Assembly (NCBI RefSeq): GCF_028641065.1
Contig: NC_073407.1
Location: 18,290,001 to 18,354,000 of the forward strand
DNA from: Leucoraja erinacea
Taxonomy: Eukaryota
Length of the DNA: 64,000 bases
Direction of reading: 5' to 3'
Part shown: one piece after another, positions 11,727-64,000 of the stretch
How the letters are laid out: the number at the start of each line of letters is the position of its first letter
Position numbering within the stretch: position 1 is the stretch's first letter
Program-made: the position numbers and the translations under genes
Notes under the pieces: model-generated
What the model was told of the DNA's origin: nothing
The model's input: the letters and a program-made list of their open reading frames with translations, nothing else
Database searches by the model: none

Positions 11727-12199
11727 CCACTAATGCCATTAGAACTACACCCACCCACCATAGGTGTGACGGGAAGGGAGTCCAGCGGCAAAAAAACACA
11801 CATATGCAGGAAATCTGAGATAAAACAGTAAATACTCTGCTGGCTGGGTTGCATCTGTGGAGAGAGAAACGATGTGTAGCGTTTCAGAGCGATGACCTTT
11901 TATCAGAACTAAAAAAATGTGGGAAATAAGGAATTTCATGCACCAACAGCTGAACAATTAAGTTCTTACTTGCAGCAGCAGTTGCAGGCTTATAAACGCC
12001 ATATCCACAGATAATATACGATAACACAATATTACAATTAATAACCCCAATATTAGATTTAAAAATCCCGAAGTCCTTACTGCAACCACAGACCATAATA
12101 GCAAAGATCTTATAGCGTACTGTTCTGTGTTCTAAAAGGCTCGGTGACTGTATCCGGTAGAGTTTGTTTACTGTGAGCTCCTGGCAAGGAAAAGATGTG

Positions 12200-12910: not shown

Positions 12911-13247
12911 ACAGCGACTTAAATTTTCAGGCAAAAAAAAAGATAGAAAGTAAGGTAATTACAAGAGGGAACTGAAGGTGGAAAACAGCGGAAGTGAATA
13001 GCCGACATTTGCCATGGAGATTTAAAGATCCAAAATATCGGGAATTATCGCGTTTGCTCGCTGAATTTCATCAAAAGTAAATTAATAATGCCTTACTTTT
13101 GATGAAATTCAGCGAGCAAAATATTTTGGATCTTTAAATCTCCACGGCAAATGTCGGCTGTTCACTTCCGCTGTTTTCCACCTTCAGTTCCCTCTTGTAA
13201 TTACCTTACTTTCTATCTTTTTTTTGCCTGAAAATTTAGGTCGCTGT
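12911..13247. repeat. About 335-bp near-perfect inverted repeat (foldback MITE derivative)
   Basis: Arms 12911-13080 and 13093-13247 are reverse complements apart from a few mismatches and a ~14-nt indel; 12-nt spacer. Confidence 0.9.
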
Positions 13248-28431: not shown

Positions 28432-28676
28432 CTACAAGTAAAAATCCACCTTGGTGGCTACGGTTTTGCAGCCTTTGTCTGAATAGATCTTTTCATTTTC
28501 TGGGAAGTATGTCATTTCATCAGCTACAGCAGTAATAATTTCCTCATCCGCCTCATAACCCCTGGCTACCAGTTCTTCCTTGACACACAACTTGACATGT
28601 TTATATTCCAGAGGAAGGAATGGGACAAAGTAGTCAATCACGTTTCTATCAATGAGGCTGGTGTGCCAGAATCCAC
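28432..28676 (-). CDS. tor1: Torsin-1 copy 1, exon 5 ([27 protein letters not shown]...[15 protein letters not shown])
   Basis: 245-nt terminal exon; sensor-II GCK motif; five exons give a 1008-nt ORF (335 aa). Confidence 0.96.
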
Positions 28677-29581
28677 CTATCCAATTAAACAAAAATACAT
28701 TAGTTTACAAAGATCACATCAGGCAAAGCGTCAAAATCATACAGCCATTCATATCTGAACTTGGGTTTTGTACCATTTCCATTTGCATCGTTTTAAAATT
28801 CTTCATTACCCTAAACACATCACAATCTACGTAATCTTGACCAAACCATAAATCCGTCAGGATCTCTGTAGATCACCAGCTGTGGACCTGCATAATCATT
28901 CCACCATTTGTTCAGCTATCAGCATCAGCAATAAGCATCTTCCAGTTCCTTCCCTTAACATCGGCCTTTAAGATGCTTCATTGACCAATCATTTGGTCAC
29001 CTGTGCTATTACCGTTTCAAACTTTTATTGGATAACAATTTTTATAGAAGTGAAGCCTTCCCAATATTTTACAAGCTTCAAGCTCCTGCTGCACTGAATT
29101 AGCCTTCAACCAAACATTGTGGAAACTTAGCAATAAATGTCTGTGCTCCTGACACTACAAGAAGAAAAGGCAATCCGCCAGTGCAGTAACCTTTGATGGG
29201 AAAACAAATAAAACTGTAGATGCTGAAATCTGAAACAAAAGCAGAGATGCTAGAAGAACTCAAGCGTTATCTGTGGAAAGATAAACCAGTCAACATTTCC
29301 AGTCAGTGATCCTTCCTCAGAACAGAACTTTCAGCACTTTGATTACCCTCAAGTAGTCAATGCTGGAAAGCACATAAATGCAAACTGCAAGCATGTCAGA
29401 ATAGAATTAGATGCATGCAGCTCCCAACATGAGCCTGTCAAACCTGTATAAGGAATGCCATAGATGTGCACTGGTAACTAGAATACTCATGGAAGTGGAA
29501 AAAGATATGAACAGATAAACAAAGGCACATTGTTGAAAAACGTCTAACATAGCCTTCATGAAATTGACAATGGATGTTTAA

Positions 29582-31893: not shown

Positions 31894-33758
31894 CTAAGGA
31901 TAGACATTTATTTTGTATGAAATATATTCACAGAAGCAACAACTCTTCACCCCACCACCACAAATCCCCAAACACACCTATTCTCAACACAAACACAGCA
32001 TCACTGAGATGATTATATATTATCCCCAAGTCAGGGTTGATGATATTACAGGACTTTGCCTCGTTATGGCAAGAACAAAAATCACTATAAATAAATGGTT
32101 GGCTGCTGAAGACGAGTAAATTTGACACTTGATATGCACGTATTGTTATGTAGCTGTCTGGTGAAGCAAGACATTTAAGTACAGAAGAGGCTTAGTTTGG
32201 TCGATTCTGCCTTTCACCACATAATAGAAAAACAAATATTATCTCCACTTGAATCACCAACTCTCACATATAGAATGTCTCAAATACATGTTTATACTTA
32301 TTACTACCAAACATTTGGATATTGCTGCTTCTTATAAGGATCTCTGTTGTCGTTGATGCCATTTCCATGAAGAGACTAAAGAACAATTTATTCCATAAAT
32401 CCTTTAGCTGTGGGGCAACCATTTTTAAGGATGTAAATACAGTATCAAGGCGTATCCAGTAAATTAATATGCACTCAAGTCAATAAACTTCACATGAATT
32501 ACATATTTAAGCAGAAGTACTCTGCAATGTAACCAGAATCATTATTTGGAGGGCAAATGGTCTGATTTGATGTGATACCCATTCCCAATTTTCTTTCCTA
32601 CATCTGCCGAGGTCCATCTCCAAAGCACCGTGCCAGTTCCAATAGCTCTCAGAATGTACCTACATTACATGTGTAGCAGGTTATTCTCCGATACCAGTCA
32701 GGCATCAGAAATGAGTCTGATCATCAAACATGGCCAATTTATCAGTATATGAAGCTTATCTGTCCTGCCCAACTTGAAGGCACCAATCTGCATTATTGCT
32801 TCTCCCAATGTAAGGGTGGGTGGCCTCAATGTGTTATGATTTTTTTTTAAATGAAAGAACTTTTATTTTCATCAATGCTACATTTATTGCTTGTAGTAAA
32901 ATTGGCTCATTTTCTAGCACTGTGATATTCCCTCGTGAATGATTTTCAATAATTGCCTTACATCTAGCATAAGGAAAGTCTTGTTAAGTGTTGGCACTAT
33001 AACGTTTTATGATTAAGTCCCATCAATTGACCAAAACAAAATTGATAACATATTTGTCAATTCCTCAATGAGTATGCTACCAAGTTATCTGCATTGAGTA
33101 TTTAGTGCTCAGCGTTCAGTTGGGTGGGATATCCTAGGCAGCCTCGTTTGTTTTATCTTCTGTAATCTTATGACCACCCAGCTAATCACTCCAAGTCACT
33201 TTTGGGGGCATTTTTTTCCCAATGTACGATTACAATTGCTTTGTTTGAGAACAATCCTCTCAAATGTCGTCGGACTTTTATACTACGTTAAAAAGGCACA
33301 TTATAATGAAGCTGTTGTGATGACATGCAGGAGAAGATTAGAAGCAAATAATCAGTATTGTTTTAATTTATATAATGAAACATTAAATACAAAGAACTGA
33401 TTTCCATGCACCACTTTAATCGCAAGGTTTGGAGGTTGTTTAACTATTTATATTTTTTCTTATGCATTCACCAAAAGTGATTACAATTAGATTAAAACCA
33501 TAACTCACTTGGTGATCCATTATTTTATAAAGAAACTTTTTAAACTGCATGATTAAAACACAGCATTCACCATGCACCAAATTTCTATCATTTCATTCAT
33601 AATCCTTCTGAAAACTTAATTAAAATGCATAACTCACTGCTGATATCCAATACTCTCTATGCTACCCCTCATGTTTTGATTTTTTAACTACGAGGAGCAT
33701 TGCCCCACACAAAATATCCCATCTAGCAATTTAAAATGTACCCATACTCTGATGTTAC

Positions 33759-36414: not shown

Positions 36415-36782
36415 GTTGTCGGTTTCCTGGCGGCCGCCCCCTAACAGGCGACGAGGCACAAGACCCCGCCTCAACGCAGCGGCCAGCGAGCCCTGACAAC
36501 CCAGCGGAAGAGCATGCGTCGTCACATCCGCCCCCTCTGACCTTTCCCCTTCCCCGCCCGAAACCCTCAGCCAGACATGTTTGTGAGGGGCATCCACACA
36601 GGCAGGAACAATGATCTTATAGCGGAGCAAGATGGTCTGCTCCTACGTAAAACACGTAGTACGGTCATGCGCAGATTCATGGGCGATTATAGGACCCATT
36701 TTAGCAACCAGCCTCCGGCAAAGATCAGATCTTTGTTTCCGCCTCCGCTCTCGTATCTTCACTTTGGTCTTTGACTTTGACC

Positions 36783-37042
36783 ATGCCGTCCATATCTACC
36801 AGTGTTGCCTAGTGTTGCCTACTGCTCTGCGGTGAATTGTTCCAATCGCCAATGTAGGCGACCCGACTTGTCTTTCTTCAGTGTTTAAGAAGGAACTGCA
36901 GATGCTGGAAAATCGAAGGTACACAAAAAAGCTGGAGAAACTCAGCGGGTGCAGCAGCATCTATGGAGCGAAGGAAATAGGCAACGTTTCGGGCTGAAAC
37001 CCTTCTTCAGACTCTCTTCAGGTTCCTCGTTAAGGAGGAAAG
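36783..37042 (+). pseudogene. Disrupted THAP-domain first exon of the P-like transposase
   Basis: Removing a 10-bp tandem duplication (36811-36820) and a repeat insertion (36882-37014, TSD TCTTCAG) gives MPSISTSVAYCSAVNCSNRQCRRPDLSFFRFLVKEER followed by GTAAG; fits the THAP CxAxxCxN...SFFRF pattern. Confidence 0.75.
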
Positions 37043-37836
37043 GTAAGAAAAGACAAATAAATCGCAATAAAAGCGAAAAGATGCCTATGTTCCTTCCACA
37101 GCGTGGGGGGGAGCCTGGCCCGGATCAGCACCAGAGATCTTTGATCAGCACGGCCAAGACACCAGAGTGAAGTTGCGGGGAGGTTTACAATGTTTATTAT
37201 TTAATGTCCCTTCTCTAGTCTGAAATAAAGATCATCATTGGATATAAAAATCAGAAGAAATATAATTGTTTAAGAAGGATCTGCAGATGCTGGAAAATCG
37301 AAGGTACACAAAAAAGCTGGAGAAACTCAGCGGGTGCAGCAGCATCTATGGAGCGAAGGGAAAAGGCAACGTTTCGGGCCGAAACCCTTCTTCAGAAATA
37401 TAATTTCAGAAACCCTTATATTCAGAAATATAATTGTGTGTGTTATATGATTATATACACCTATATCACATTCATGTATGTGTGTTCTTTCCAGCACAAT
37501 CTGGTCAGTTGTATGCTCATGGAATAAAACCATCCTTAAGTTATACATCTTTTGTAAATCTTGCTCAAAACAAATTTAATTTTGTGAAATTCTTCAATTA
37601 GATAACCCCACCATTACAGGCAGATCTCATTCCACTCTCTGGGTATTGGGAAGATCAGACCCCATTTTATTTGTGGAGAAACAACTCCATAGAAAATAAG
37701 CACAAAAACATTCAGTAACATTCCAGGGCTAGAGCAACTGGAATCTTCATATTGCTATTATTTCCCCAAATACTGCAATTGTGAACAGTGTGATTACATT
37801 AGTGTGATTAGATGAATGAATTACAGAGTGCAAGTG

Positions 37837-38284
37837 TAATACAAAATCAACTCAAACACAGCAGATGAGCCATTTAAAAAGAAATGATTTAAAAAACATT
37901 AAAAAAAAAAGAAATTTACCAGAGTCAAAATTTATAAACATTTTATTCTTTAACAAGAATTAACAGAATTATAAACTAACAGAATTATGAATCTAACCCT
38001 ATATCACGCACAAAAACTGTTCCCCCGCAACGTTGATTACCCTGCGAGTCGGGTAGGGTAGGTTCCGGTTAATACAAAATCAACACAAACACAGCTTATG
38101 AGCCATTTAAAAAGAAATGATTTAAAAAACATTAAAAAAGACAATTACCAGTCAAATTTTATTCTTGACAAGAATTAACAGAATTATGAACTAACAGAAT
38201 TATGAATCTAACCCTATATCACACACAAACTGCTCCCCCACAACGTTGATTACACTGCGAGTCGGGTCGGGTAGGTTCCGGTTA
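37837..38284 (+). repeat. Tandem duplication of ~215-230 bp inside the P-like element
   Basis: 37837-38069 and 38070-38284 both run TAATACAAAATCAAC...GGGTAGGTTCCGGTT. Confidence 0.85.
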
Positions 38285-38410
38285 CTAAAATGGGTGGGGA
38301 AAAATGCCCAGGATCCGCTCCGTAACGTACTACACGTCAGCCCATTGCATTTCGCAGAAGTGGCCTATCTTGCTCCGCTATAAGATCTTTGGGCAGGAAC
38401 AAAGATTATA

Positions 38411-43723: not shown

Positions 43724-45890
43724 CCCTCCATAATGTTTGGGACACAATGAGACCCAAAGGTTAATGGAATGATGTTCACTTTGTTGCCCTCCATAATGTT
43801 TGGGACAAAGACCCATAGGTTATTTATTTGCCTCTGTACTCCACAATTTGAGATTTGTAATAGAAAAAACATCACATGCGCTTAAAGTGCACATCGTCAA
43901 ATTTTATTAAAAGCCATTTTTATACATTTTGGTTTCGCCATGTAGAGATTACAGCTGTGTTTATCCATAGTCCCCCCCCCCCCCCCCCCCCCCCCCACCC
44001 ATTTCAGGGCACCATAATGTTTGGGACACATGGCTTCACAGGTGTTTGTAATTGCTCAGGTGTGTGCTTAATTGCCTCCTTCATGCAGGTATAAGAGAGC
44101 TTCAGCACCTAATCTTTCCTCCGGTCTTTCCATCACCTCTGGAAAATGTTATTGCTGTTTATCAACATGAGGACCAAAGTTGTGCCAATGAAAGTCAAAG
44201 AAGCCATTATGAGAAACATTATGAGACTGAGAAACAAGAAATACAACTGTTAGAGACATCAGCCAAACCGTCCGCAGAAGACTTCATGAACAGAAATACA
44301 GAGGCTACACCGCAAGTTGCAAACCACTGGTTAGCCGCAAAAATAGGATGGCCAGGTTACAGTTTGCCAAGAAATACTTAATAGAGCAACCACAGTTCTG
44401 GAAAAAGGTCTTGTGGACAGATGAGACAAAGATTAACTTATATCAGACTGATGGCAAGAGCAAAGTATGAGGAGGAACTGCCCAAGATCCAAAGCATACC
44501 ACCTCATCTGTGAACCACGGTGGTGGGGAGTGTTATGGCCTGGGCATGTATGGCTGCTGAAGGTACTGGCTCACTTATCTTCACTGGTGATTACAACTAA
44601 TGGTAGTAGTGTAGCGGCCCCTAGTGGTGGCCTTGTTACTATCGAACCCTCGCGATTGGCTGGCACGGTCACATGAGCGAGGGAGCTTCTTTGCGGATTT
44701 TTTTTGTAACCGTTCATTCTAGCGCCACGGGAATAGAATACACATCGTTAAAATTTGGCTGTCTAACTCGACTCGGGTGACTACTTTGTTTGCGTTTCAA
44801 AATAAAGAATTTTTGCACACCTTAACGTCTCGACTCGTCAAAGTAGAATAATAAATTCTGAAGTGTATCGACATAACCTGTCTGCTCAAGTTCAAACAAA
44901 TGTCTCAAAACTCATTGGCCGGCGGTTCATTCTACAGCAAGACAATGATCCCAAACGTACATATTATCTAAATGGTGGCCGATTGGGAAAGGGGGAGATG
45001 CAGCGAGACCTGGGTGTCATGGTACACCAGTCATTGAAGGTAGGCATGCAGGTGCAGCAGGCAGTAAAGAAAGCGAATGGTATGTTAGCTTTCATTGCAA
45101 AAGGATTTGAGTATAGGAGCAGAGAGGTTCTACTGCAGTTGTACAGGGTCTTGGTGAGACCACACCTGGAGTATTGCGTACAGTTTTGGTCTCCAAATCT
45201 GAGGAAGGACATTATTGCCATAGAGGGAGTGCAGAGACGGTTCACCAGACTGATTCCTGGGATGTCAGGACTGTCTTATGAAGAAAGACTGGATAGACTT
45301 GGTTTATACTCTCTAGAATTTAGAAGATTGAGAGGGGATCTTATAGAAACTTACAAAATTCTTAAGGGGTTGGACAGGCTAGATGCAGGAAGATTGTTCC
45401 CAATGTTAGGGAAGTCCAGGACAAGGGGTCACAGCTTAAGGATAAAGGGGAAATCCTTTAAAACCGAGATGAGAAGAACTTTTTTCACGCAGAGAGTGGT
45501 GAATCTCTGGAACTCTCTGCCACAGAGGGTAGTTGAGGCCAGTTCATTGGCTATATTTAAGAGGGAGTTAGATGTGGCCCTTGTGGCTAAGGGGATCAGG
45601 GGGTATGGAGAGAAGGCAGGTACGGGATACTGAGTTGGATGATCAGCCATGATCATATTGAATGGCGGTGCAGGCTCGAAGGGCCGAATGGCCTACTCCT
45701 GCACCTAATTTCTATGTTTCTATACTGCTAAAGCAACAAAGGAGTTTTTCACAGCTAAAAATTCTTGAGTGGCCAAGTCAATCACCCGATCTGAACCCAA
45801 TTGAGCATGACTTTTATATGCTGAAGAGAAAGCTGAAGTGCACTTGTTCCCAGAACAAGGATAAGCTAAAGATGGCTCCAATACAGGCCT
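43724..45890 (+). mobile_element. Tc1 (copy C) with nested solo LTR (44610-44841) and nested CR1 LINE
   Basis: Left TIR with duplicated tip, transposase fragments including FILQQDNDPK and WPSQSPDLNPIE; solo LTR with AGTAG TSD. Confidence 0.88.
44961..45722 (+). mobile_element. 5'-truncated CR1-clade LINE (ORF2 C-terminus and 3' UTR)
   Basis: Uninterrupted frame RDLGVMVH...LVRPHLEYCVQFWSP...RTRGHSLRI...FFTQRVVNLWNSLP; CTATGTTTCTA tail; splits the Tc1 sequence CCCAAAC|ATACTGCT. Confidence 0.92.
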
Positions 45891-46050
45891 TATACAGGTT
45901 TGACAGGCTCATGTTGGGAGCTGCATGCATCTAATTCTATTCTGACATGCTTGCTGTTTGCATTTATGTGCTTTTTATTTGATTTGATTTTTTTTTTTTA
46001 ATTGTCCAGTGTCGAAAAGCAAAATATATTCAATTAAAAACACACACATT

Positions 46051-46295
46051 CTACAAGTAATAATGCACCCTGGCGGCTACGGTTTTGCAGCCTTTGTCTG
46101 GATAGATCTTTTCATGTTCTGGAAAGTATGTCATTTCATCAGCTACAGCAGTAATAATTTTCTCATCCGCCTGATAACCCCTGGCTACCAGTTCTTCCTT
46201 GACACACAACTTGACATGTTTATATTCCAGAGGAAGTAAAGGGACAAAGTAGTCAATCACATTACAATCAATGAGGCTGGTGTGCCAGAATCCAC
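46051..46295 (-). CDS. tor1: Torsin-1 copy 2, exon 5 (...[17 protein letters not shown])
   Basis: 245-nt terminal exon, open frame; five exons give a 981-nt ORF (326 aa). Confidence 0.9.
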
Positions 46296-46365
46296 CTATC
46301 CAATTAAACAAAAGTACATTAGTATACAAAGATCACATCAGGCAAAGCGTCAAAATTATACAGCC

Positions 46366-48631
46366 CAAGGCTGCCAACATTGGGTGAGAGTTGGGAGTGA
46401 GAAATTGTGAGAGACCAAGCCCGAGGGAGCATAGCGACGGGGGGTGGGGGTGGGGAGTGGGCGGAGGGTGTCCCTCTCCCATTGGTACGGAACATTTGCA
46501 TTTTTCAGCTTGAAATTGTGCAATATGGTGCATACTGTAGTGAGTCTTTTAACTTACACTTGAATGCAATATATGCTTTAAATTGGATTGGAGCGTTTTT
46601 GAAAGGGGGGAGGCTGTGTGATCACTGGCCTTGGGGGAACCCGGTGAGGGAATGGAGCAACCGAGTGTGGAGAGGGTGTGGAAGAAGAGTGTCCCTCCTC
46701 CCAGGGTAGGAACTTGTTGGAATTTGATGTATTAAAATCATGTTTTAGTGCACTGTAGAAGTATGATTTCAATGTTTTTTGTATGAAGTATTTTTAAGAG
46801 GTAACTTTTTAAGGGGTAACTTTATCCACACAAAGGGTGATGGGTGTATGGAACAAGCTGCCAGAGGAGGTAGTTGATGCAAAGACCATCCCAACATTTA
46901 AGAAAAAGTTAGACTGATACATAGATAGGACAGGTTTGGAGGTATAGACCAAAAGCAGGTAGCGTAGCTGGGAGCGTAGGCGGGTGTGGGCAAGTTGCGC
47001 CGAAGGGCCTGTTTTCACACTGTATCACTCTATGACTACATTATACCTCCACCATGCATGAATGTTTCAAAATCAAGTGATTGAGTTTTATTGCCATGTA
47101 CTCAAGCATAAAAACATAGAAAATAGGTGCAGGAATAGGCCATCGGCCCTTCGAGCCAGCACTGCCATTCAATATGATCATGGCTATTCATCTAAAATCA
47201 GTACCTCTTTCCTGTTTTTCCCCCATATCCCTTGATGTCATTAACCCCAAGAACTAAATATATCCCTCTCTTGAAAACATCCAATTGGCCAGCACTGCCT
47301 TCTGTGGCAGAGAATTCCACAGATTCACAACCCTCTGCGTGAAGTTTGTTCTCATCTCAGTCCTAACTGCCCCCCCTTTATTCTTAAACTGTGACCCATG
47401 GTTCTGAACACCACCAACATCGGGAACATTTTTCCTGCAGTTACAGTAAGTGAAAATCTAGTAGGCAAGCAGGATGCTTTCACCAACCACCCCCATTTGA
47501 AGTCCACTATCTTCCACCGTATCTACCCAGTGCATGGTACTTACTTCCAGCAGCCACTGGTTGTCCTCCAGGATGCACCGAGCCACAGCCTGATTCATGC
47601 CGAATCACACCTGGCTGAATTCGGCAGAGACTCTCACGGCAGCGGTGCAACGCTTCGACGCCTCCGACGGCCCGGGACTCTTGCACTGAGGCTGCTCCAT
47701 GGCCGGAGCTGCAGTGAGCAACTCCCCAGCCCAGCAAACACTCACCAGCCCCGCTCCCCGTCTGCATCTGTCCCCGCCCCTGCTTCTGCTTCCAACACCC
47801 GTGGCCCATGCAGTTGATATGAGTGTTGAAATATTCGTTGATCACAGAATTTCTCACAACAGAGCGAGAGAAATTGGTGAAATGCTTGATTCTCACGCCC
47901 AATGCATGGGAGTTGGCAGCCCTGCCTCTCTATCCCCTTCTCCCTCACCCCCTCTCTCCCTCCCCTCTCTCTCCCTCCCACCTCACTCATCCCTCTCTCT
48001 CCTCTCACGTCTCTCACTTCGCCCCTCTCCTCCTCTCTCTTCCCCATTTCTCCCTCCCACCTCATTCTCCCCCTGGCTCTCTCCCCCCTCTATCTTTTTC
48101 CTCTGTCTCTATCTCCTCTTTCTCTTTGCCCCCCCATCTCTCTTTCCCCCTCTCTCTTTTACCACCCCTATCTCTTCCCCCCTCTCCCATTCTCTGCTAT
48201 CCTCTCACCCCTCTCTCTCTCTCCCCCCCCTCTCTCCCCCCCCCCCCCCTCTCTCCCCTCCCCTCTCCCTCTTCTCTCTCTCCATTCATCCCCCCTCTGT
48301 CACTCCCTTCTCTCTCCTCTCACCCCCTCTCTCTCTCCCTCCCGTCTCCTTCCCCTCTCTCTCTCTCCACCTCCCTTTGAGAGTCTGTCCCTTTGGCACA
48401 GAGACTCTCGCGGCAGCGGCGCAACGCTTCAGACGCCTCCGACGACCCGGGACGTGCGCTGCTCCATGAACTGCAACTAGCGACTCACCAGCCCTGCAAA
48501 CACTCGACAGCCCCGCACACACTCGCAGCCCCGCAAACACTCACCACAGAGCGTGAGAAATTTCTGATCAGCGTGAGAGTTTGCTTGAGGGCGTGATTCT
48601 CACGCTCAAAGCGTGAGAATTGGCAGCCCTG
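46366..48631. mobile_element. Non-autonomous TIR transposon with 5-bp TSD CAGCC (possibly hAT5-like), carrying nested LINE fragments and a CT-rich tract
   Basis: TIR CAAGGCTGCCAA / TTGGCAGCCCTG; CAGCC at 46361-46365 and 48632-48636; empty site in copy 1 (ATACAGCCATTC near 28742). Confidence 0.85.
47925..48378 (+). repeat. C/T-rich low-complexity polypyrimidine tract
   Basis: About 450 bp almost entirely C and T; explains the spurious Pro/Ser/Leu ORFs. Confidence 0.95.
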
Positions 48632-49816
48632 CAGCCATTCATATCTGAGCTCCGGTTATGTACCAATTCAATTTGCATGGTTTTAAAATTCTTCATTGCA
48701 CTAAACACATCACAATCTACGTAGTCTTGACCAAACCATAAATCCGTCAGGATCTCTAAAGATCATCAGCTCTGGTCTTGCATAATCAATCCACCATTTG
48801 TTCAGCTACCAGCATCCTCTAGTTCCTTCCCTTAACCTCTGCCTTTAAGATGCTTCATTGACCAATCATTTGGTCACCTGTGCTATTACCTGTGCTATTA
48901 CCACGGAATTAGCCTTCAACCAAACCTTGTTGAAACTTAGCAATAAATGTCTGTGCTCCTGAGACTAGAAGAAGAAAAGGCAATCCGCCAGTGCAGTTAC
49001 CTTAGATGGAAAACAAATACATCTGTAGATGTTGAAATCTGAAGCAGAGATGCTAGTAGAACTCAAGCACTATCTGTGGAAAGATAAATCAGTCAACATT
49101 TCCAGTCAGTGATCCTTCCTCAGAAGAACTTTCAGCACTTTGATTACCCTCAAGTAGTCAATACTGGAAAGCACATAAATGCAAACAGCAAGCATGTCAG
49201 AATAGAATTAGATGCATGCAGCTCCCAACATGAGCCTGTCAAACCTGTATAAGGAATGCCATAGATGTGCACTGGTAACTAGAATACTCATGGAAGTGGA
49301 AAAAGATATGAACAGATAAACAAAGGCACAATGTCCAAAAACGTCTAACATAGCCTTCATGAAATTGACAAGGATGTTTAGTTTAGTTTAGAGATACAGC
49401 ATGGAAACAGTCCTTTCGGCCCAGCCAGTCCACGTCGACCAACGCTCACCCATACACCAGTTCTATCCCACGCACCAGGGACAATTTACAGAAACCAATT
49501 AACCTACAAACCCGCACCTCTTTGGAATGGGGGAGGAAACCAACACCGTCACAGGGAGGATGTACAAACTCCATACACACAGCACCCGTAGTCAGGACCC
49601 AGGTCTCTGGCACTGGACGGCAGCAATTTTACTGCTGCGCCACTGTGCCGCCACAATGGTTGTACAGATTTCCAATTGGTGAGCATATTTTGTTCCAGTG
49701 TTCTTCATTGCACATTCCTCATGTTAAGCAAAAAAAGTATATATTAATCAAATTGTACAAAGAAGATTCCAAGTGCAGCTCATTTCAAACTGCCAAAATT
49801 TAGCATACATACTTAC

Positions 49817-62313: not shown

Positions 62314-64000
62314 ATAAACTAATGTATTCTTGTTTTACAGCGCACTGTAAATATATAATGTTCCACCACCCCAGCACCAGTCATTTTAGATTAAATTACT
62401 TTAGAAATGCAATTCACAAAACAAATCCAATTGAAAAGAATCTGATAAAATAACATGTATTTTCACATGGTGACATTTAAAAAAATAAAATAAAACCTTT
62501 ATACAGTGGAAAAAATAAAGCTAAAAATATCAGACTTTTCATGTTTTACCAAGTAACATGTGTTTATTTTAATCATGAGCCTGTCACATAAGGGACACTA
62601 TAACAAAGATTATTCTAGTATCTGTATGAAATATTTTGTATAGTAAAAGTAATTGCTAAAACAGACACTATTTGCCTTCTTAGGAAACGTATCCATCTTA
62701 ACTGGCTTTAGTTAAAAACAAATATATCCACTTTACATGATTTGACCTGTAAAAATGTTGACACAAAAATATCAGTACAAAACAAGAAAATTGTTGAACA
62801 AAAAGTCCATGTTGGATATGCTTTTTCACATTTGCTACAAAGGAGAAATTGAGTACCTTGTGCATGAATGGATTGTTGTGTGCATTGCAACATAAATTAG
62901 TTTCTTCTCGTTGTCATTTCTTTAAGTGGGACGGTGGGATTAAACTTGAACATAATATAGTGCTGATTTCTTTGCATGGTTCCTTCGTCAAGAGCATTTA
63001 CTCAATTTTAAATGGCCAAAAAAATTTATTTTCAAAGAAGTGCAGTGGCTCAATCTATGCAACCTGTCAAGCTATGCAATCATTTTCAACTAATTACTTC
63101 CCTACTGTATGTATGTAAACATGTGTGAAATTCTCAATCTTTAAATAGCAGCTTAAAATCACTACAGGAACAAACTGGCAAATTGAGATAGATTCAAATA
63201 GCGCAATCCCCAGGTAAATCCATCAACTGCAGCAATCAATTATCCCATTCTTTTTTTTATTATTAAAAAAGTGTCCAGTGTCAAAAAGCAAAATATATTC
63301 AATTTAAAAAACACACACATTCTACAAGTAAAAATCCACCTTGGTGGCTACGGTTTTGCAGCCTTTGACTGAATAGATCTTTTCATTTTCTGGAAAGTGT
63401 AATTTAATCAGCTCTGCTATAGGATCTTTGCCTGAGACTACAAGAAGAAAAGGCAATCCGCCAGTGTTGTAACCTTTGATGGAAAACAAATAAAACTGTA
63501 GATGCTGAAATCTGAAACAAAAGCAGAGATGCTAGAAGAACTCAAGCATTATCTGTGGAAAGATAAACCAGTCAACATTTCCAGTCAGTGATCCTTCCTC
63601 AGAAGAACTTTCAGCACTTTGATTACCCTCAAGTAGTCAATACTGGAAAGCACATAAATGCAAACTGCAAGCATGTCAGAATAGAATTGGATGCATGCAG
63701 CTCCCAAACCTGTCAAACCTGTCAAACCTGTATAAGGAATGCCATAGATGTGCACTGGTAACTAGAATACTCATGGAAAAATATATGAACAGATAAACAA
63801 AGGCACAAAGTCCAAAAACGTCTAGAATAGCCTTCATGAAATTGACAAGGATGTTTAGTTTAGTTTAGAAATACAGCATGGAAACAGTCCTTTTGGCCCA
63901 GCCAGTCCACGCCGACCAACGCTCACCCATACACCAGTTCTATCCCACACACTAGGAACAATTTACAGAAACCAATTAACCTACAAGCCTGCACCTCTTT
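62314..64000 (-). pseudogene. tor1: Torsin-1 copy 3: 3' UTR, truncated exon 5 (63322-63413) and intron 4, running off the window
   Basis: Colinear with 27410-28525, then with 29148 onward; acceptor and 5' part of exon 5 are deleted. Confidence 0.88.

Follow-up and report, generated by a model that had tools for sequence, protein, structure and literature searches.

Excision scars of a P-superfamily transposon in Leucoraja erinacea point to a long staggered cut of variable length

The torsin copies and the lesion in copy 3

The window analyzed here, a stretch of 64,000 bp of the Leucoraja erinacea genome (contig NC_073407.1, positions 18,290,001 to 18,354,000 of the forward strand), contains three copies of a torsin gene, the third of which is broken in its last exon. 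On the exons of copy 1, the counterpart of the broken exon encodes PF21376 (TOR1A_C, the torsin C-terminus) and an upstream exon PF06309. Comparison of the copies shows that only the 3' part of the last exon remains in copy 3 (63322..63413, minus strand), without its splice acceptor. Homology between copy 3 and copy 1 ends at 63413 (28525 in copy 1) and restarts at 63431 (29148 in copy 1), the two edges described in an earlier note on this DNA. The roughly 620 bp of copy 1 that it had reported as missing, acceptor included, amount to 622 bp (28526..29147, minus strand), which comprise the acceptor at 28677-28678, about 50 codons and intron sequence.

Copy 3 is the sister of copy 2, as over 3,176 alignment columns there are 89 sites unique to copy 1 versus 59 and 56. 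The copy-2 segment missing from copy 3 spans 46145..48957 (minus strand) and includes a 2.27-kb insertion. Given that copy 2 is the closer relative and carries this insertion within the lost interval, the loss from copy 3 amounted either to about 0.55-0.6 kb or to about 2.8 kb, the larger figure applying if the insertion predates the duplication. The insertion itself (46366-48631, in the last intron of copy 2) has an apparent 5-bp duplication and short inverted ends and represents a different type of DNA transposon. An 87-bp inverted copy at the downstream boundary of copy 2 (45888-45974), 100% identical to 49168-49254 and 99% to 29367-29453, is a recent templated rearrangement or conversion. 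The similarity of copy 3 to copy 1 ends at copy-1 position 32450, and no match to the first two torsin exons was found in the 9 kb past the window end (L035); the 5' end of copy 3 may likewise be truncated or interrupted. Elsewhere in the window (12934-13225) there is an inverted repeat of 105 nt, 98% complementary, with arms 82 nt apart.

P-superfamily elements and their transposase

A non-autonomous element of 1,783 bp lies at 36609..38391 on the plus strand, with 25-bp terminal inverted repeats, a remnant of a THAP exon and a perfect 8-bp duplication on its flanks (36601-36608 and 38392-38399). It sits upstream of torsin copy 1, about 200 bp from the likely start codon, and the match between copies 1 and 2 stops exactly at 36608. 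Over about 1 kb it is 84% identical to the 3' ends of two transposase-bearing copies (L055 and L059).

The family belongs to the P superfamily, of which the 8-bp duplication, terminal repeats of 23-25 bp starting with CA, a THAP domain and a split RNase H fold were found. The genome holds 38 matches to the P GTP-binding/transposase domain. In the three transposase frames scanned, the P domains PF12017, PF21787, PF21788 and PF21789 were detected, the last three of which, representing the RNase H DDE core split by the GTP-binding domain, scored above cut-off in 3/3 frames, and one frame aligns with the Drosophila P transposase (6P5A) at an E value of 5e-33. Copy L048 (G000:C956; 10,519 bp) is near-intact, having both ends, 23-bp repeats, a perfect 8-bp duplication, the THAP exon and an open frame of 773 aa. 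All three acidic motifs are kept in L048 and L051, while the glutamate is missing in L055; the GTP-contact motifs are conserved in sequence, and the exon with the THAP-type cysteine motif was recognized by pattern and translation both in the full-length copy and in the window element. A domesticated THAP9, a single gene without repeats or deleted copies, was considered and rejected in view of the 38 domain matches, the repeats, the duplications and the many deleted copies. P-type transposases of marine invertebrates share the same Pfam architecture, the named matches being two gastropods at 35-40% identity, and the four closest transposase protein matches reach 57-80%.

Two transposase lineages, 75% identical to each other, were distinguished; mostly, the short repeats go with L048, L060 and L064 and the long ones with L052, L055, L057 and L059. 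The latter four copies carry, at their right ends, the 25-bp repeat type to which the tip discussed below belongs. A search for left ends 10-20 kb further yielded no full-length transposase copy bounded by 25-bp repeats on both sides, and two other end pairings (C4 and C3) were discarded as whole elements because their flanks did not match.

Within the repeat, the inner 5-mer (bases 21-25) is an exact repeat of bases 3-7 of the end. This inner motif lies 20 nt from the end in 70 of 86 distinct intact ends, 19 nt in 8, 18 in 7 and 16 in 1; these figures are not genome frequencies, as the ends were picked by the inner motif at loci mostly chosen as 20-type.

The junction in copy 3

Between the two edges of the lesion lies a 17-mer (63414-63430) with four matches in the window at three or fewer mismatches, against 0.24 expected. 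The earlier note had described it as a terminal-repeat variant with two mismatches, which is correct relative to the element at 36609-38391, yet the 17-mer is the exact end of a subfamily and has 1,315 exact matches in the genome, whereas the reversed control has 0. Alignment of copy 3 to copies 1 and 2, as that note had suggested, showed the 17-mer to be absent from the equivalent site in both. The intact subfamily ends agree with the junction over 20 nt (63411-63430, minus strand) and differ at base 21; bases 18-20 of the tip also belong to the torsin exon sequence and form a 3-nt microhomology at 63411-63413. Given that both partners carry the shared bases in microhomology joining, the tail at this junction would have been 20 nt long, and the 17 nt originally proposed, although correctly located and unambiguous, are a minimum only. 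Had the tail been 17 nt, the chance of a 3-nt match at the junction would be about 1%.

Adjoining the tip, a surviving copy of the 8-bp target site is present (63431..63438, plus strand), and the identical 8-mer occurs in copy 2. Scored with a matrix built from 94 scar target duplications, it ranks in the top 1.8% of local 8-mers and at the 61st percentile of scar duplications, and so looks like a normal target of the P family. Just left of the junction, at the place where extension of the tail would have occurred, comparison with the other copies reveals three changes (63399..63410, plus strand; one 2-nt deletion and two substitutions), an excess over the copy-3 rate with a post hoc Poisson p of about 0.003; they possibly reflect error-prone fill-in. 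The search for tips in the window also identified a second solitary tip, of 16 nt, at 12102..12117 (plus strand), with no matching target duplication seen nearby. The first reading of the junction, as a P-family tip left by excision and joined by microhomology after one-sided loss of flank, is supported.

Excision scars across the genome

Head-to-head pairs of tips of the 25-bp variant occur 906 times in the genome (control 0), a raw count that covers exact matches in scars shorter than about 60 bp and includes scars copied inside other repeats. Flanks common to many scars indicate such amplification, so that raw counts are not event counts. Unique flanks were found for 73/100 sampled tips, and an 8-bp duplication within 2 mismatches for 44/50 scars (the first 50 of the 906 pairs); the deduplicated samples all come from contig C1.

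It could be argued that these palindromes of 22-46 bp are tiny mobile elements in their own right, as terminal repeats and 8-bp duplications are present and certain sequences are found over and over. This we regard as scarcely credible, since the recurring copies have common flanks and thus spread inside other repeats, the junctions are heterogeneous and include templated inserts, and the palindromes are without the subterminal motif common to both intact ends. Reading them as excision scars, we observed that single ones had been multiplied as passengers of several other repeat families (L014, L123, L129, L155-L159, L215 and others), and these could date the host repeat families relative to the P burst. 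Others (L011, L119, L152 and L245) are nested in other copies of the same P family, some in the terminal region, a pattern of repeated self-insertion. At L183 (G000:C1 64503683-64503757), three tips fall within 75 bp, a 38-bp scar adjoining an extra 20-nt tip, possibly through re-insertion beside the scar and subsequent excision. A tandem array at L022:240-552 (G000:C1 ~49388640-49388950), made of about 13 units of 24-27 bp that each open with an 18-nt repeat tip, is a minisatellite derived from a scar.

The length of the surviving tips was determined on 200 sampled C1 tips, which comprised 32 element ends and 168 remnants, 105 of the latter being unique by flank. Counted strictly, these 105 end at 13 nt (2), 14 (13), 15 (23), 16 (2), 17 (12), 18 (6), 19 (6), 20 (36), 21 (4) and 22 (1), so that 5 exceed 20. 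This strict count is used as the main figure, its 17 class being inflated by 19-type ends; a mismatch-tolerant count gave 40/107 at 20, 8 at 17 and 7 above 20, and a pooled histogram that contains loci chosen for long tips was set aside for frequencies. The mode at 15-18 nt predicted in the earlier note was thus not borne out, with the largest class at 20, followed by 15 and only 12 tips at 17; nor is the distribution flat, the outcome named there as refuting the note's reading, for the lengths come to a sharp stop at 20. Scars reflect trimming and repair as well as cleavage. The 15- and 20-nt peaks match a GC microhomology, and their height is therefore partly a repair effect, which leaves the ceiling and the direct joins as the only features that inform on the cut.

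Over the whole genome, the paired tips that reach 20 nt number 1,177, against 22 that extend to 22 nt. About 8 of these 22 rows enter the element interior, as expected of aborted template copying, and the remaining ones are accounted for by the partner tip or a templated repeat. A recurring scar that apparently keeps 22 nt was dropped as amplified, the three copies examined having a single flank. The ceiling is also informative with respect to microhomology use, given that a 5-nt microhomology exists beyond base 21 that is stronger than those used. Longer tails would favor the resulting 25+10 product, which was found in 1/100 scar rows listed, and its near absence argues against longer tails; the genome count of tips reaching 22 nt is blind to this overlapped product.

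Solitary tips comparable to the one in copy 3 were examined by eye, and 6/16 automatic candidates were removed (two decayed pairs, one re-duplicated tip, one extended scar and two element ends). The ten retained measure 14, 14, 17, 17, 17, 19, 19, 20, 20 and 20 nt. For the copy-3 locus only, the element could instead have stayed in place until an unrelated deletion removed most of it together with its flank and ended near the tip by chance; one junction cannot reveal its cause, and microhomology deletions do occur without a transposase. We consider this improbable, as the breakpoint falls exactly on the family-wide ceiling, where a random break in a 1-2 kb element would seldom fall, and 0/10 solitary tips exceed 20 nt.

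Direct joins and the short repeat variant

An untrimmed end is best recognized by direct joins. In the 25-bp variant, 19 scars hold two non-overlapping 20-nt tips with 0-6 nt between them. The tips abut directly (20+20) in 16 of these scars and are separated by templated inserts in the other 3, and none of the 19 retains base 21. Fifteen of the direct joins are unique, 12 of these with a duplication within 2 mismatches. The 20-nt end is joined directly to partners of 14, 15, 16, 17 and 19 nt as well. In the 23-bp variant, whose repeat is 2 nt shorter, 913 tips end at 18 and 34 carry base 19; its 19 two-tip scars include 12 of the type 18+18 (all unique), 6 of the type 19+18 (5 unique), one scar with a 4-nt insert and none of the type 20+20. 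The base beyond the ceiling is thus retained at times, with base 21 in 4/105 unique tips and base 19 in 6/19 short-variant joins.

These joins bear on whether the overhang is the 17 nt known from Drosophila, longer tips being the product of a short bout of repair synthesis, templated by the sister chromatid, that precedes end joining. Aborted synthesis followed by end joining is common at the 17-nt tails of Drosophila (PMC2895639), 3/10 solitary and 12/105 unique tips end at 17, and a few scars do enter the element interior, such as the rows noted above and one 91-bp scar. Such synthesis would have had to stop after exactly 3 nt on either side of each of 15 independent direct joins, and after exactly 1 nt in the short variant; moreover, in clearly one-side-extended scars the partner tip still measures no more than 19-20 nt, and the longer microhomologies past base 21 are almost unused. 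A conserved 17-nt overhang is for these reasons quite improbable in this family. We favor instead tails of about 20 nt in the long variant and 18 nt in the short one.

Two ways of setting these lengths can be envisaged. Each transposase lineage may have a fixed ruler (18-19 nt or 20 nt) with which the inner motif has co-evolved, and this would explain most of the data, given that short and long repeats mostly sort with the two lineages. The class one base longer is commoner in the short variant (Fisher p 0.02-0.05), and one 19-type solitary tip (C1:13782214) retains 20 nt, the length expected from a fixed ruler. Some intact elements nevertheless pair a 19-type end with a 20-type end, and 18+20 scars occur both as two direct joins with matching duplications and as additional microhomology joins, which have unique flanks and likewise matching duplications. 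The 18+20 scars came from single mixed-end elements, which is difficult to reconcile with one ruler per lineage, even though the direct mixed joins are only two. A fixed ruler therefore appears unlikely to us, though far from negligible, and we lean modestly towards placement of the cut by the inner motif, since the ceiling tracks the boundary ahead of the inner 5-mer in both variants.

Proposed excision mechanism

Integration by DDE enzymes requires a 3'-OH at the element end. On the basis of this chemistry, the tails are presumed to be 3' tails. At the torsin locus, a P-superfamily element would have inserted in the last intron of copy 3 and later been excised by its transposase, which would cut the transferred strand at the extreme element end and the other strand about 20 nt inside, leaving a 20-nt 3' tail of terminal-repeat sequence on each donor end. 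Usually the tails would be joined via 2-nt microhomologies, directly or with short templated inserts, to yield a scar of 22-46 bp flanked by both target copies. In copy 3, one side would have lost its tail along with 0.6-2.8 kb, and on the other side the 20-nt tail would have annealed within exon 5 through its final three bases. In our judgment, the probable course of events is a long staggered cut of the Drosophila type with subsequent end joining, the overhang measuring about 20 or 18 nt (±1) and ending at the inner motif instead of at a fixed 17. We are rather more confident that the length ceiling marks the cut site to within 1 nt.

An inner cut at the conserved motif boundary GAGC^AAGAT gives a tail of 20 nt with the 25-bp repeat and of 18, or sometimes 19, with the 23-bp repeat. 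In Drosophila, the scars of PMC2895639 (Table 1), which include one-sided deletions joined by microhomology, never exceed a 17-nt tail; by the same logic the tail here would be 20 nt, and 18-19 nt in the short variant. The geometry that the earlier note had taken to be conserved therefore appears to hold as a long staggered cut, although not at exactly 17 nt.

As described for the fly structure (PMC7776569), the transferred strand folds back and pairs with the other strand in its 5' part, there is disorder at bases -14 to -18, and the inner half of the repeat is held by the HTH domain. Because bases 21-25 equal bases 3-7 in the family studied here, the new 5' end could form base pairs with the transferred strand once this has folded back, in the manner of the Drosophila strand-transfer structure. 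By analogy, the repeat-length variation observed here would fall in the loop that is disordered in the fly. From the fly repeat sequence given in PMC2136230, pairing of bases 19-23 with -4 to -8 would be feasible at the cost of two wobbles, and the first base past the cut would lie opposite -3, like the cut at 20 here. A plain alignment with the Drosophila cut site favors one base further in, making 21/19 possible, and the uncertainty of ±1 remains.

It can be speculated that P transposases have no fixed 17-nt measure and nick the non-transferred strand at the inner copy of the terminal sequence, with a loop (16-20 nt at the ends found here) free to vary even between the two ends of one element, so that the overhang of any P family would be readable from its fossil scars. 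We put this generalization forward tentatively and with slightly less than even confidence.

Comparison with known P elements

The family shares with the Drosophila melanogaster P element (6P5A) the THAP and HTH domains, the RNase H fold split by a GTP-binding insertion, the 8-bp duplication and the CA...TG ends, as well as two-tip scars, whose tips meet by short microhomology, abut directly or enclose templated inserts, and now and then a one-sided deletion (PMC2895639, Table 1). The Drosophila repeats, in contrast, are 31 bp rather than 23-25 bp, and the tips there are 17 nt long, whereas here they are 20 or 18 nt and vary between repeat variants in one genome. Furthermore, the evidence here comes from thousands of tips in fixed germline scars and not from an assay.

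The zebrafish Pdre2/zfTHAP9 is likewise a P-like element of a vertebrate; it too has 8-bp duplications and copies with internal deletions, but its repeats measure 13 bp and are unrelated in sequence, and it is present in about 50 copies (PMC10983969). Its excision was demonstrated in cells, with larger flank deletions, and the excision account in the main text of that work contained no cut position that we could find. With respect to repair, the short microhomologies and the inserts copied from nearby resemble polymerase-theta-type alternative end joining, as for P breaks in the fly (PMC2895639). The fly table holds 1 blunt join, with trimmed ends, whereas intact tails joined directly are much more frequent here and may reflect more classical end joining.

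Meaning for the P family

P scars and the stagger are already known in Drosophila; what would be new is a different overhang length in this family. Among titles and the openings of abstracts, with subscription journals and repeat databases outside the scope of the search, no report of an overhang length for a non-Drosophila P element or for this family was found. The torsin copy-3 lesion is itself a minor example, and the scars together document, on a large scale, how defined long 3' tails were joined in the germline. Given that the natural repeat variants differ by 1-2 nt within the segment for which the fly structure shows disorder (-14 to -18) and that the scar lengths shift accordingly, the question of ruler or motif becomes directly testable, and L048 offers a near-intact vertebrate transposase with which to test it.
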